Assembly: GCA_040289515.1 (NCBI GenBank)
Contig: PSLI01000048.1
Coordinates: 1-12,109 of the forward strand
Direction: 5' to 3'
Source: Candidatus Sysuimicrobiota bacterium
GTDB taxonomy: Bacteria; Sysuimicrobiota; Sysuimicrobiia; Sysuimicrobiales; Sysuimicrobiaceae
Length of the DNA stretch: 12,109 bases
Made by a program: the position numbers. Positions 1-6,000 of this stretch are shown here, one piece after another; positions within the stretch are counted from its first letter, which is position 1; each line of letters opens with the position of its first letter.

Positions 1-3000
1 GGCGGCCAGCACCGCTGCCGCGCCCACCGGGCCGGCCACGGCGCCCACCTGGTCCAGCGCCTCGTGCAGCCCGAAGGCGCGCCCGGGGCCCAAGCGCATG
101 GCCGCGTGCGAAAGCAAAGCGTCGCGGGACGGGGTGCGCAGGGCCTTGCCGGCACGTTCAAGGACCACGAGCAGGCCTGCGACCTCCCACCGGCCCGCGA
201 GAGCGAGGGCGGGGACCGCCGCGAGGTTGGCGGCGTAACCCCACACCGTCAAAGCCCAGTAGCGGCGGGTGCGGTCCGCCAGCCGTCCGGACAGCAGCCG
301 CAGAACGTACCCCACGAACTCCCCGAAGCCGGCCACGAACCCTACGGCGGTGGCGGACGCGCCCAGGGCCAGCAGGTACGGGCCCAGCAGGGCACGCGCG
401 CCCTCGTACGTGGCGTCCGCCAGCAGGCTCACCAAGCCCATCAGCACGACGAACCTGGCCGCACGGGCAGGCCTGAAGGATACCGCGGGGCTGCGGGACG
501 TCATCCCAGCTCCAGCGACGACCCCAGGGGGCCCGGCCGCACGCGGAATTCAACGCGACCTTCGTCGGGGTCCCGACCGTGGAAGGCCTGCAGCGCCCGC
601 AACCAGCTGGTGGCCTGTTCCGGAGTGAGGCCTTCGTGGCGGAAGCGGTAATCGTGTCTGCGGACCAACTCCGAGAGGTCCGCTTCCAGCTGCAGCACGG
701 CTTGGCGGTATGAGGCGGCCAGGTCCCGGACGGCTTCCTCCGAGCGCGCCAGGGAGCTGGCCAGGAGCAAGTGGGGCAGGCACAGGGCTGCCGGACCCGA
801 CAGCGCACGGCGCAGTTCCGGGTCGCTCGCGTGGTCCGCAACGCTTGCTGCGTACACCTCCTCCATGCGGCGGAGGTGGCGGCACGCAGGACAGGAGGCG
901 GAAGGACGGAGGGACGACCACAGGGCGCGCGCCAGGCCCCCGCGTCGGCGGCAGAGAAAGGTGTCCAGGCGGGAGCGCAGGCGGCGCAACAGATCGAGAT
1001 ATGTAATGGCGACCCCGAGGACCGGGTGACGCTGCGCAGGCAGCATCCATGCGTGCTGCGGGCAGAAGCCCCAGGCAGCCCGAAGCTCCTCCCTCGTTCC
1101 TGGGTCGTTCACCCGCTCGTACAGGAAGGTGTCCAGGAACCTGTGCACGGCGTGATGAGCCAGGCGGCAGACCGGGCATCCCCCGAGCGACAGTGCCTCG
1201 CGAACCCTGGCCAGGACAAGGTCGTCCCGCCGACCCGGTCGGCCTATGGGAGCGCGCCTTTGGGCCTCCGAGGGGGAAACCACCGAATCGTCTGCGGAGC
1301 CCTCCCAGGATGCACTCCGCACCCGTTGCCGCCGACCTACCCACCTGGTGAAGAAACCCACAGCCCCAGTGCTCCTTTCGGTACCGGTACTTGGTTTACG
1401 CTCAGCCCCTGGCCGGACGGGAGCGTAGGCGATGGTTCCGAACCATGGACTTGGCCACGGCCTAGCGCTGGCGAGGAATCTGCTCGAAGACGTTCGCACC
1501 TTTGGGAATCCCGCGGGAAGTCGTGCCGTTCGTGGGGCCCCGATCACCCGGTGTGGGGCTTTCATCCCCTCTCCCGCAGCGGCCCAGGCCGGCTCTCCGC
1601 CGAGTCCCGGTACAACCGCCACGACGCGCAGGCATCGCTGGGAACACACCCCCTCGCCGTTTGCGCGTGTTTAAGGGTACCTCTCCCTGGGCGCGGCCAT
1701 CAACTTGTCTGCGGCTTTAAAGACCACCTGCCTGTGGGCCGCCTGCACCGGCGCGAGGAGCAGGGGCACCGTGATCCCGCGGATGAACCATGCCACCACG
1801 CTGCCCGCCCACAGATGGTCCCAGGCACCGCGGGCATGAGTCGCCATCACCAAAAGATCCGGCCGTCCTTCCGCCACCGCCGCGGTGAGGTCGTGCACCA
1901 CCTCATCGCGGCGGACCTCGATGTCTGCAGCTCCTCCAGGGCGGCCCGCGCAGCCTGCGAGGCCAAGTCCAGGACGGCGCCGGTGGCCTGGGGCAGGAGC
2001 ACTCCAGCATGCCACGGATGGCAGGCGGGGTGCGTGTTACAGTAATCCTGTGCGGCGGCTGGACCCGTTGTTTGCCCGGCCCGGCCAACCGGACCGTGCT
2101 TTGGAGGCCGTTCCAACCCCGCAGGCGCCCCACGCGACCAGGATCCGGTACGGAGCCGCGGCGGCGTCCGGAATCCTGCTGGCTTTGAGCTTCCCGCACC
2201 CCGCCTGGTGGCCGCTCGCGTGGGTGGCGCTTGTGCCGCTGTTCCTGTCCGTGCGGGGGCTTGGGCCTGCCGCGGCGGCGGGGGTGGGGTTTGCGTTCGG
2301 GCTTGCCTTCTACGGCCTCTTGCTCACGTGGCTGGGCAGCCTGGGTTTTCCCGCGTACCTGGCCGTGGTGGTTTTCGCCGCAGGGTACTGTGTGCTGTTC
2401 GGCGTGCTGGCGGCGGCTGCAGGGGGCGGGGGCGGGGACGTGCGGTTCGCGGTAGCCGCGGTTCTGGCGTGGGTGGTGGTGGAGTGGCTGCGCAGCCTCG
2501 GCAGCGCGTCCTTCCCGTGGGGGCTGGTGGGCTATTCCCAGTGGACGAACCTGCCCGTGCTGCAGGTGGCGTCCGTGGGCGGGGCGTACCTGGTGTCCGC
2601 GGTGGTGGTGGCGGCGAACGCAGGCGTGAGCCTGCTGCTGCTGCGCAAGCCCGTGGGGATCCTGTTGCTGATCCCCGCGGCCGTGGCATGGGGTTGGGGC
2701 AGCGAGCGGCTGGTGCGCCTTCAGGCCGAGCGGCGGCCGCAGCTCAACGTGGCCGCCGTGCAGCCCAACCTCCCGCAGCAGCGCAAGCTGGACCCCGACT
2801 TCGCTCCGCAGACCCAGGAGGTCCTCCTGTCCCTCACCCGACGAGCGGTGGCTTCGGGAGCGCGCCTTGTGGTGTGGCCGGAGCACTACTGGCCGGCTCT
2901 CCTATTTCAGGGGGGAGTCCTGGAAGAACGGCTGCGGCGGGCGGTGCCGCAGGGCGTGGCGCTGCTGGCCACGGGCGAGATCGAAGGCCGCCGAAACAGC

Positions 3001-6000
3001 GCGGTGGTGGTGGAGAACGGCCAGGTGCTGGGCCGCCACGACAAAGCGCGCCTTGTGCCCCTGGGAGAGTGGTGGGCGAATCCCGGGCCGGGTTACCGTC
3101 CGGTTCCTGCGCCGTGGGGCCCTGCGGGCGTGCTGTTGTGCTACGAGGTCGTGTACGCCGCTGCCGCGCGGGACCTGGTGCTGGGCGGGGCGCGGTATCT
3201 CGTGCACTCCTCGGAGGAGGGGTGGTTCGGCCGGTCCGCAGGACCGGTGCAGCACCTGGGTTTCGCGGTGGTGCGGGCGGTGGAGCTGGGTCGGGACGTA
3301 GTGCGCGCGGCCAGCATCGGGGTATCCGCCGTCATCGACCGCACGGGCAGGCTGCAGGCCACGCTGCCGCAGCTGACGCAGGGCTGGGTGGGCGGAACCC
3401 TCGAGCCGCGCTCTGAGCTCACGCCTTACGCGCGGTGGGGAGACCTGTGGATGTGGCTGGCGGCGGCGACGTTGGCGGTGATGAGCGTGCCCGTGGCGCT
3501 TCCGTGGCTGCGGGGGCGTTTCGTAGCCGCGTTCGCCGTACCGGCGGGTGTGGCCTTGCTAGGGAAAGTGCTCGGGCTCCGGGTGGCCGCAACAGGGGTC
3601 CTGGTGGCGGCCGCGGCCCTGATGGTCTACCCCGACCTGCGAGAGCTGGGGCTGGCGCGGGCCCGACATCTGACGAGCGTGGTGGGCGCCGTGGGCTGTT
3701 CGGCTGCGGCGATCTGGCTTGTGCACGCCGGGTTCGCAGCACAGGAGATCCCGCTGTTCTTTCAGTTGCCAGGGCTCACCACCTTCCTGAGTAGCCTGGT
3801 GGCGGGGTTGGGCGAGGAGCTGTGGCTGCGGGGTGCTCTGCCGGCCGCACTGTCCAGGTACCCCGTCGCAGCCTTTCTTCTATCCGAGGTGGGGACGCTC
3901 TTCCTGTACCCCAAAGCCAGGGGGGAGGTGGTGGCCTGGCACCTGCTGAGCGGGGCGGTGTTTTTCTACGTGCGCCGGCTCACCGGCAGCGTGTGGGGGC
4001 CCGTGCTGGCCCGGGGCCTGGGGGACGCGATTGTGTGGGCGCTTCTGGGTTGGTGGCCCTCCAACCTTGGATGACGGCCGCCGGGTTTCCACGGGGTCTT
4101 CATACCACCTTCGGGGGCACTTCACGCGCACCCAGCAGCCTTTTTCTTTGTAGGTGATGCTGGATGCGCGTGGTTCGGTGGTTCGGTGGATGGGGATGCT
4201 GCTGGCGGCGCTGATGGCATGCGCCGCTGCGGCGCCTGCAGCCCAGCCCGTGCGGGCGACGGTCCGGGACCGGGGAGAAGGCGGGGTCACGGTGACGGCC
4301 ACCTGGCTGGGCGTCGAAGAGGAAGCCCTGAGGTTTCGCGTCAGCCTGGGCACGCACTCCGTGGACCTGTTGGGCCGACGTACAGGCCAACACCGCCCTG
4401 CGGACCGCTCCGGACCGGGAGACCAAGCCCCTGCGGTGGCAGGAGAAGCGTACCAGCGCCCACCACCGCGCGGGGAAGCTCGTGTTCCCGGCTCCCGGTG
4501 CGTGGCCGGAGCGAATGAGCGTTTTGCTCCGCAACCTGGCAGGGGTTCCGGAACGGTTGGGCGAAACGGTAATACGGTGAGGAGGCGGAGATGAGCTGGC
4601 GCGAAGGAGTTGTGGTGGCCCTGGTGGTGCTGGCGGTGCTCCTGGTGGTGCCGGGTCTGTGGATGGCTTTCGGGTGGAGCTGGATGGTGGGCCCCGGCAT
4701 GATGGGCCGCTGGGGCGGCTGGGGCTGGGGAGGTGCCTTGGGATTCCTGCTGCTGGCGCTGCTGGTGGTGGGGGTGGTGCTTGCGATCCTCGGGGCAGCC
4801 CGGCGCGAGCCCGACGGAGCTCTGGAGATCCTTCGCCAGCGCCTGGCGCGGGGCGAGATCACCCCGGAGCAGTACGAGGAGCTGCGCAAGCTGCTGCGCT
4901 GACCGGCCGTCGTCTACCATGGAGGTGCCGTGGCCTGGGTCCTCGTGGTGGACGACGACGACACCGTCCGAGACCTCCTGCAGAGGTATCTTGCCCGGCA
5001 GGGGTTCGAGGTCCAGGGGGTTGCCGACGGTGAGCAGGCCCTGCGGGTGATCCTGGACGTCTTGCTCCCGGGCCTGGACGGGCTGCAGGTCCTGCGCAGC
5101 CTGCGGGCGGAGGGAGATCCGTACGGGGTCCTGCTCACCGCCCGGACCGAGGAGCCCGGAGGGGCGGGACGGCGCGCGCGAGCTGCTGCGGCAGCGCCTG
5201 GCGCGGAGGGAGATCTCCCCGTCGGAGTATCCGGAGCTTGTGCGGAGCCTGCAGGCCACCCGGAAGGCATCCAGGGGGGTCGCACCCATAGCGCTGTGGC
5301 TGCTGCTGGCGTTGCTCCTACTTCTGCTAGTGGCGATGGGCTAGGCACCCGGCGCGTGGGGCCCCGGGCAGCGGGCATGACGGGGATTTTGGTTGCGATA
5401 CCCTGATTAGGGAAAGCGCTAGCTGGGAGGTAAGCGCATGGGCGTGTCGGTCAGGAGGTTGACGTTCGCCGCGTTCGCGGCGCTGGCGGCATCGTGGGGC
5501 GTGGCCGCAGCCCCGGTACAGCGTGTGAATGTGCAGATGAAGGAGTTCGCCTTCGTCCCGGCCACGGTGAGCCTGAAGGCGGGGGTGTCGACGGTCGTGG
5601 TGCTGTCCAACCGCGGGGTGGTGGAGCACGAGTTCATGGTGTACGACGCGGGCGGTCTGCACATGGCGGGCATGGGCCACGACGAGAGGCACCGGCAGCT
5701 GGAGGCGCGGAGCTACTTCCGTGGCGTGGCCGTGCAGGTGGAGGGCAAGGCGCCGAAGGTGGAGCGGATGGGCAAGGACCTGGTCATGCTCAACCTGGCT
5801 CCCGGCCAGCAGGTGGTGCTGCGGTTCGTGCCCCGCAAGCGCGGCACCTTCGAGATGGGCTGTCACCTCCCCGGGCACTACGAGGCGGGGATGAAAGGCA
5901 CCTGGGTGGTGCGGTAGCGAACGGGGGCTTCCCAGGGGCTGCACCCGCTCCACCAGCCGGTCGCACTCCCGCTGTCCTTCCCGCCAGCGGTCCAGGGGTT

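Follow-up and report, generated by a model that had tools for sequence, protein, structure and literature searches.

Lipoprotein N-acylation and CPBP proteins

Lnt is a well-studied, essential enzyme of the cell envelope and an antibiotic target, and its arm 3 is thought to be central to substrate handling. In mycobacterial Lnt-Ppm1 a C-terminal domain is also fused to Lnt, but it is a soluble, active glycosyltransferase, unrelated to the domain described below. The E. coli and P. aeruginosa enzymes (TIGR00546; 8b0k, 5n6m) consist of an eight-helix membrane domain and a nitrilase domain with an E-K-C triad. Passages of two studies describe arm 3 as folding over PE and as crucial for substrate engagement (PMC10313180), name its residues P353, F358 and M362 as important or essential, and set helices 7 and 8 at the back of the enzyme and the portal, like arm 3, on its front side (PMC5500888).

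In S. aureus LnsAB, LnsB is a CPBP-fold protein with degenerate motifs that is linked to lipoprotein N-acylation; it is encoded by its own gene, and its partner is an NlpC/P60 enzyme without a membrane domain. Excerpts of PMC13559823 describe LnsB as a sub-clade among staphylococcal CPBPs that is needed for N-acylation with all of its motif residues dispensable, and a passage of PMC8689077 proposes a membrane platform as its role. SpdC/LyrA, SpbR, CflP and Abx1, all non-catalytic CPBP scaffolds, are likewise stand-alone proteins, with other partners; fusion to the protein's own enzyme is unreported in the literature examined. Rce1, the myxosortase MrtX and MroQ are active CPBP proteases. Parts of PMC13692083 treat the Glu2-Arg pair as a structural salt bridge of catalytic and non-catalytic CPBPs alike, and parts of PMC11980579 model CPBPs as accommodating the lipid moiety of lipidated Cys between their helices.

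A fused Lnt in the Sysuimicrobiota

The window, a stretch of 12,109 nucleotides from a Candidatus Sysuimicrobiota bacterium (contig PSLI01000048.1), encodes a true fusion of Lnt to a CPBP-fold domain (Table 1). The protein scores 222.9 bits against TIGR00546 (lnt; cut-off 132.9) and matches the Pfam Rce1-like family over residues 576-660 (E 1.7e-7, above cut-off), which together with the single ORF bears out the preliminary description of a 674-residue Lnt with a C-terminal Rce1-like domain. PF02517 matches 57/61 fused proteins at E<=0.1, with the window protein above cut-off. The Lnt part has the domains of the E. coli and P. aeruginosa enzymes and superposes on 8b0k over model residues 1-455 (Z 43.2, rmsd 2.4, 445 aligned); its triad, E278, K332 and C364, is kept in all 61 aligned fused proteins. 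It differs from them by seven extra helices, so that the C-terminus is predicted to lie in the periplasm.

The modelled structure identifies the added domain as a member of the CPBP fold superfamily. Its best structural match is SpdC (6u0o: Z 14.9, rmsd 2.9, 181 aligned), followed by Rce1 (4cad: Z 10.9, rmsd 3.2, 174 aligned), after which matches drop to Z 6.2. Foldseek gave no match to the domain at E<=0.001 (Rce1 ranked 2, SpdC 4), the domain profile matched no sequence of a solved structure, and ESM Atlas matches were generic CPBP clusters only. The whole-chain model (pTM 0.93, pLDDT 93.5) indicates a fixed arrangement of domains, and loop charge bias assigns the cavity-bearing side of the CPBP domain to the periplasm.

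Table 1. Features of the fused lnt gene in the window
Feature	Position	Strand	Basis or remark
lnt fused to CPBP domain	2050..4074	+	single ORF, 674 aa, from GTG 2050; start uncertain by ~25 codons, N-terminus not conserved
Lnt N-terminal membrane domain, residues 40-191	2167..2622	+	Pfam PF20154 (LNT_N), E 1.4e-29
Nitrilase-like domain, residues 234-445	2749..3384	+	Pfam PF00795 (CN_hydrolase)
Arm 3 remnant, 9 residues (342-350)	3073..3099	+	29 residues (345-373) in E. coli Lnt
Lnt helix 8, residues 466-487, directly continuous with the added domain	3445..3510	+	AlphaFold2 secondary structure
CPBP-fold domain, residues 488-674, seven predicted membrane helices	3511..4071	+	pLDDT 94
CPBP motif 1, E589-E590-x-W592-x-R594	3814..3831	+	alignment of 61 fused proteins
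Motif-2 His position, Tyr620 in the window protein	3907..3909	+	61-protein alignment
Family-specific E626-x-x-x-W630, predicted periplasmic face	3925..3939	+	conservation counts
Motif 4, R655-x-x-x-D659 in the window protein	4012..4026	+	61-protein alignment

Residues of the CPBP-fold domain

The domain has fold and motif positions in common with Rce1, MrtX and MroQ, but its catalytic set is incomplete in all members from the phylum's genomes. The 61 aligned proteins come from 70 loci (30 best matches and 40 picked for family coverage), after removal of six cut by contig ends, one with a frameshift (genome G045) and two unfused paralogues. In motif 1, E590, W592 and G595 are invariant and R594 is present in 60/61; the catalytic first Glu (E589) survives in only seven, the window protein among them, and its position is hydrophobic in most. 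This loss of Glu1 with retention of the Glu2-Arg pair also characterises CflP, according to parts of PMC13692083. The "E..LRG" that had been reported as kept is therefore kept in its second, structural Glu (61/61) and not in its first. The motif-2 His had been called gone and persists in 12/61, while motif 4, described as mostly Arg, has Arg in 32 of the 61 proteins, His in the other 29 (including all of families f4 and f5), and His in 56/56 of a second protein set. Catalytic degeneration as such is upheld: Glu1, His2 and His4 occur together in 0/61 and 0/56 fused proteins, from which the domain is, on its residues, very probably not a protease. The nearest stand-alone CPBPs retain Glu1 in 98/115, His2 in 86/115 and His4 in 107/115.

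Against these counts, the notion that the domain is still catalytic, either as a protease (clearing lipoprotein signal peptides, for example) or through a new E590/E626/H-R655 site, is distinctly unlikely, even though two Glu, plus Trp and Arg residues, are invariant and His4 is retained in f4 and f5; genome G000, moreover, has a separate CPBP with every motif. Myxosortase (Mrt) families of NCBIfam give weak matches in at most 11/61 fused proteins (best E 1e-6, in 6/61) and none for the window domain. Also on the side of residual catalysis is a small fused lineage, P0145/P0280/P0281, which keeps EE..R and both CPBP His. The complete Glu1, His2 and His4 set is confined to P0144, P0145, P0280 and P0281, where the Asn/Asp position is occupied by Glu, and the Lnt nucleophile is Ser in the P0281 lineage, no locus of which was found in the genome or metagenome contigs searched.

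E626 and W630 are invariant in the fused proteins (61/61 and 56/56), with Glu and Trp at these positions in only 21/115 and 22/115 stand-alone CPBPs; E590, R594, G595 and R642 are also the commonest residues in ordinary CPBPs. The C-terminal tails of soluble nitrilases superpose on model residues 593-603 (622-632 in the numbering used here) in 12/30 non-Lnt rows, an indirect hint that E626 and W630 may lie against the nitrilase domain. Covariation (mutual information, 87 fused proteins, effective 70) is dominated by kinship, with no enrichment of inter-domain pairs.

Spread of the fusion

Fusion of the housekeeping Lnt to a CPBP-fold domain is supported throughout the phylum. The genome tallies take in two unpublished genomes, G017 and G025, which the alignments and trees leave out. 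Whole-protein matches occur in 89/94 phylum genomes and 54/54 of high quality; at E<=1e-6 the C-terminal domain profile finds 85/94 phylum genomes vs 0/47 genomes of other phyla, and the fusion is present in six of seven families. The seventh, f3, is represented by one genome, 72% complete, in which no Lnt was found. In 69 of the 85 matching genomes the domain lies within an open frame of at least 650 codons. Among the 16 with shorter frames, all nine that were fetched end at a contig edge and G045 has its frameshift between the Lnt and CPBP parts; the others were judged from coordinates or left unchecked. No RNA sequencing run was listed as containing the sequence; contigs assembled from three sequencing runs gave partial coverage, and none bridged the junction. 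At 40 Lnt loci of other phyla, the CPBP domain is absent from the ORF and from ~2.5 kb around it. The phylum-wide occurrence, the ending of outgroup Lnts without the domain, and the lack of a published Lnt-CPBP fusion (none was found in the open-access literature) agree with what the preliminary description had claimed.

The gene order secA-lnt-prfB is kept in 55/61 loci. This adjacency to secA would suit a dead CPBP that serves as a docking scaffold for LspA, Lgt, the Sec translocon or a Lol-type transporter, taking no part in the chemistry of Lnt and with arm-3 loss unrelated. So would attachment of the CPBP domain at the back of Lnt, the failure of Pfam to find LolA in G000 (96.7% complete), and the precedents of SpdC, SpbR and CflP for their partners, most non-catalytic CPBPs working through protein partners according to passages of PMC13559823 and PMC13692083. 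This explanation is nevertheless unlikely: secA and prfB are the only conserved neighbours found within ~1.5 kb of lnt, and the new invariant residues seem, in the model, to face the nitrilase domain. Lgt, LspA and BamA are all present, and G000 has one Lnt only. LspA is found in 88/94 phylum genomes, so the CPBP domain is no substitute for signal peptidase II, a role that can be set aside.

The CPBP domain has remained conserved: members of different families are 35% alike in it, compared with 42-44% in the Lnt domains and 23% in the three added helices that come first. A fusion tolerated because lnt is essential, in which the added domain need only fold, would accommodate the G045 frameshift at the junction, and the conserved residues that are also commonest in ordinary CPBPs may be structural. 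Such a frozen accident is very unlikely, since a stop codon could discard the domain without penalty and it nevertheless persists in six families that are just ~42% alike in their Lnt parts, with E626 and W630 invariant solely in the fused domain.

Loss of most of arm 3

Compared with E. coli and P. aeruginosa Lnt, every fused Lnt is missing ~20 residues of arm 3. The Lys-Cys spacing is 32 in 61/61, 29/29 and 11/11 fused proteins (overlapping sets), vs 44-59 in 83/87 aligned unfused Lnts and 46-63 in 38/39 parsed loci of outgroup genomes. In a second set all 55 fused proteins are short; of the unfused, 60 have a spacing of at least 44, two are short and one is unparsed. Probably, arm-3 loss and fusion were each a single event, so that their match counts as one observation and not as hundreds. 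The whole phylum apparently runs its sole Lnt without most of arm 3.

A long arm 3 (Lys-Cys ~50) is a usual feature of Lnt and no formal criterion; the fused members lack it. This deletion and the small Ser-nucleophile lineage with the CPBP Glu and both His are new, both being absent from the preliminary description.

Relation to LnsB

The pseudo-protease of the fused Lnt belongs to the family that staphylococci use in an unrelated N-acylation system. A link to LnsB had been proposed; it stands as an analogy at the superfamily level, a matter of convergence, and "LnsB-like" is valid in that sense only. Sequence likeness is not detectable: with one LnsB sequence, from an AT-rich genome, hhalign against the domain profile gives a probability of 0.1% over 11 columns, and the HMM of the fused domain gives LnsB 1.5 bits. 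An HMM of stand-alone CPBPs gives the window domain 62.8 bits and LnsB 17.7, although, having been built from fused-domain hits, it is biased towards the fused domain. LnsB orthology was rejected on the hhalign and profile scores.

Descent of the fused domain from LnsB, tying the two N-acylation systems together, is scarcely credible despite the common fold and the degeneracy of both proteins. LnsB E209 sits 29 residues ahead of motif 4, exactly as E626 does (in this one sequence), a position at which 21/115 stand-alone CPBPs also have Glu. The motifs have decayed differently: the second Glu survives in the fused domain, and LnsB has lost both motif-1 Glu, with C167-Q168 at the EE position (in an excerpt of PMC13559823, and confirmed on the sequence). 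In a set of 1.84 billion proteins the nearest relatives of the fused domain are CPBPs with intact motifs, and PMC13559823 places LnsB as a sub-clade of the staphylococcal CPBPs.

Proposed role

On balance, we favour a dead CPBP domain that acts as a membrane subunit of Lnt without catalysis of its own and supports acylation, resembling LnsB and SpdC in its working. The phylum's one housekeeping Lnt would N-acylate diacylglyceryl-Cys lipoproteins after Lgt and LspA, presumably by the usual E-K-C ping-pong chemistry, to judge from its triad and fold. An intramembrane protease of the ordinary CPBP kind would have been joined behind Lnt helix 8 in the ancestor of the phylum and would then have lost its catalytic residues piecemeal, family by family; the pattern is visible in the alignment, the order presumed. 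The domain may pack on Lnt through the new periplasm-side site (E626, W630), most likely holding lipid or lipidated-Cys substrate, or bracing the nitrilase domain. Its support may offset the loss of most of arm 3; both changes are observed, and it is the causal connection that we infer.

A more specific proposal, that the periplasm-facing CPBP cavity has assumed the task of arm 3, binding the diacylglyceryl-Cys end of apolipoproteins or the phospholipid donor and presenting it to Lnt, perhaps across a dimer, is tentative and rather improbable. Because the domain joins the back of Lnt and arm 3 is at the front, a direct replacement inside a single chain is doubtful on geometrical grounds. If the proposal is true, CPBPs would have been recruited twice, independently, as presenters of lipidated cysteine for N-acylation, and the one-chain enzyme would offer a simple setting for probing LnsB function; the Glu shared by E626 and LnsB E209 would be of first interest, the residues mutated to date not including E209.

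Further points weigh against the favoured role. Lnt already owns a membrane platform, which is the function that a passage of PMC8689077 proposes for LnsB. Short-arm Lnt-like proteins without CPBP also exist: four divergent ones among the 87 unfused, and the second Lnt of genome G092, its relative P0300 and a Ser paralogue in G029. Trees of the Lnt part give no clean fused clade, the fused group having support of 0.99 with two unfused proteins inside in one FastTree and 0.61 with four inside in another.

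Distribution and genomic setting of the fusion

The lnt gene of the window encodes a protein that scores above the TIGR00546 cut-off and is the one Lnt found in its genome, which also encodes LspA, two Lgt and one BamA-type protein. The Lnt-CPBP fusion is indeed phylum-wide, as the preliminary description had it: 89 of the phylum's 94 genomes match the whole protein, including all 54 of high quality, and a profile of residues 488-674 (A1, built from 61 proteins) has matches in 85 of the 94, as against none of 47 genomes of other phyla. These tallies include the unpublished genomes G017 and G025, which the alignments leave out. 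The domain lies in a frame of at least 650 codons in 69 of the 85 matching genomes; nine of the short frames in the other 16 were fetched, and all nine stop at contig edges. The gene of genome G045 is frameshifted. In 40 Lnt loci of other phyla, the CPBP domain is absent from the gene and its vicinity.

Searched against 1.84 billion representative proteins, A1 yields 35 matches at E ≤ 1e-10; the strong matches comprise fusions and fragments, and ordinary stand-alone CPBPs come next. Databases call the fused proteins either Lnt or CPBP, several NCBI relatives are named 'Armatimonadota bacterium', and no report of the fusion was found in the open-access literature. The phylum, which holds a single order, is probably CSP1-3 / Ca. 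Sysuimicrobiota, a name present in NCBI taxonomy. In 55 of 61 loci, secA and prfB flank the gene; the exceptions include the window's own genus and its nearest relatives: the window's lnt has left the site that most of the phylum uses.

Coordinates of the genes and domains discussed
Feature	Location	Strand	Description
lnt	window 2050-4074	+	single ORF, 674 aa; LNT_N, CN_hydrolase, Rce1-like (Pfam)
Usp domain	window 1671-2015	-	partial; flanks lnt
Response-regulator receiver	window 4930-5406	+	partial; flanks lnt
Riboflavin kinase/YbaK	window 8372-9220	-	riboflavin kinase domain (7-122) and YbaK-type tRNA-editing domain (152-269) in one ORF (Pfam)
lspA-lgt (L071 / L073)	G000 (window's genome):C5:43628-44788		lspA, then second, more divergent lgt-like gene; main lgt on different contig
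Domain fragment (L047)	G040:C16:5086-5613		contig end; 60% identity to window's domain; f4 genome with own copy; has the look of a stray contig
Second Lnt-like gene, genome G092	L048:2405-4078	-	unfused, short arm 3, Cys
Second Lnt-like gene, genome G029	L049:1548-3629	+	unfused, short arm 3, Ser
LnsB (S. aureus)	L123:809-1555	-	Glu at residue 209 (E209)

Loss of arm 3

The main interest of the fusion lies, above the claimed link to LnsB, in the pairing of a pseudo-protease with the loss of arm 3, a deletion absent from the preliminary description and new here. In the alignment to E. coli Lnt, residues 345-373 stand opposite just 9 profile positions. The catalytic Lys-Cys spacing, 52 in E. coli, is exactly 32 in every fused protein of three overlapping sets (61/61, 29/29 and 11/11). 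Of 89 unfused Lnts, 87 were aligned, and 83 of these have spacings of 44-59; among outgroup loci, 38 of the 39 parsed fall at 46-63, with one at 37 and one more unparsed. A second set comes from a search with an unfused, short-armed paralogue as seed: its 55 fused proteins all have short spacings, 60 unfused ones all reach at least 44, two unfused ones (the seed and its relative) are short, and one is unparsed. Short-armed Lnt-like proteins without a CPBP domain do occur; the loss was probably one evolutionary event. Passages of PMC5500888 rate residues in the missing stretch as important or essential, and passages of PMC10313180 describe a segment within it as folding over PE and as opening for the lipoprotein.

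P0356, P0358, P0374 and eight more Lnts, two of them labelled Rokubacteria, combine a long arm 3 with a C-terminal extension of another kind (~100-180 aa), which has no Pfam match in the two scanned.

The added domain

The AlphaFold2 model has pLDDT 94 in the added domain and pTM 0.93 for the entire chain. Compared with 48,161 solved chains, the domain most resembles SpdC (Z 14.9), then Rce1 (Z 10.9; next row 6.2), values of a size that calls for caution with helical bundles. Pfam supports the CPBP assignment in 57 of 61 members. Across these 61, EExxxR retains its first Glu in 7 members, its second Glu in 61 and its Arg in 60. As given in passages of PMC13692083, the first Glu is catalytic, while the second forms with Arg a structural salt bridge that non-catalytic CPBPs also retain; the fused domain thus shows the pattern given there for non-catalytic CPBPs. 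The motif-2 His, earlier described as gone, persists in 12 of 61, and motif 4, described as mostly Arg, is Arg in 32 and His in 29. The first Glu and both His never occur together (0/61; 0/56 in a second fused set), which makes a catalytic role for the domain improbable.

Every fusion of both protein sets has E626 and W630; stand-alone relatives have them in only 21/115 and 22/115. With the Lnt C-terminus cytoplasmic (passages of PMC10313180), loop charges would give seven helices and place E626 and the cavity side facing the periplasm. In two stand-alone relatives, P0185 and P0223, the Rce1-like CPBP is intact and fused to an ICMT/PEMT methyltransferase, a single chain with both steps of eukaryotic CAAX processing; P0176 has an FHA-CPBP architecture.

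In three fused, short-armed proteins of ~660 aa (P0145, P0280 and P0281), EE..R and the two His are conserved, the Asn/Asp position holds Glu, and Ser stands at the place of the Lnt nucleophile. P0144 belongs with them (fused, near-intact CPBP motifs, Ser for Cys). E. coli Lnt C387S yielded product in one experiment (passages of PMC10313180), so that a Ser nucleophile is not necessarily dead. The three cluster with the phylum in trees of both domains, with modest support, and no locus of theirs was found among the genome or metagenome contigs searched; their motifs suggest that the CPBP domain was intact at the time of fusion.

Comparison with LnsB

The S. aureus LnsB sequence was found through a published primer and agrees at all eight mutated residues in passages of PMC13559823. 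The fused-domain profile shows no likeness to it by hhalign (0.1%), and LnsB scores 1.5 bits on the fused-domain HMM; orthology of the two is thus scarcely credible, and the proposed tie survives as an analogy of function, not as a relation of sequence. A stand-alone-CPBP HMM, built from fused-domain hits and biased towards that domain, gives the window's domain 62.8 bits versus 17.7 for LnsB. The intact CPBP of the window's own genome aligns over 74 columns as a weak match (E 0.019). LnsB E209 takes the position of E626 relative to motif 4, a lead for which the odds of a chance match are about 1 in 5 in this single sequence; it is absent from the mutated residues in those passages of PMC13559823.

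Role of the CPBP domain

Judged by its fold and catalytic triad, the fused protein should have Lnt activity. The pTM of the chain, with the superposition of soluble nitrilase tails as far as model residues 593-603 in 12 of 30 rows, hints at a fixed Lnt-CPBP interface. We somewhat favor a non-catalytic subunit that would support Lnt in acylation. That such a subunit presents substrate in place of arm 3 is a tentative extension, and the position of Lnt helices 7 and 8 at the back, with the portal at the front (passages of PMC5500888), counts against direct replacement. That the domain is a scaffold for another protein is rather unlikely, and that it is a passenger very improbable. Substitution for LspA is excluded: LspA is present in 88 of 94 genomes.
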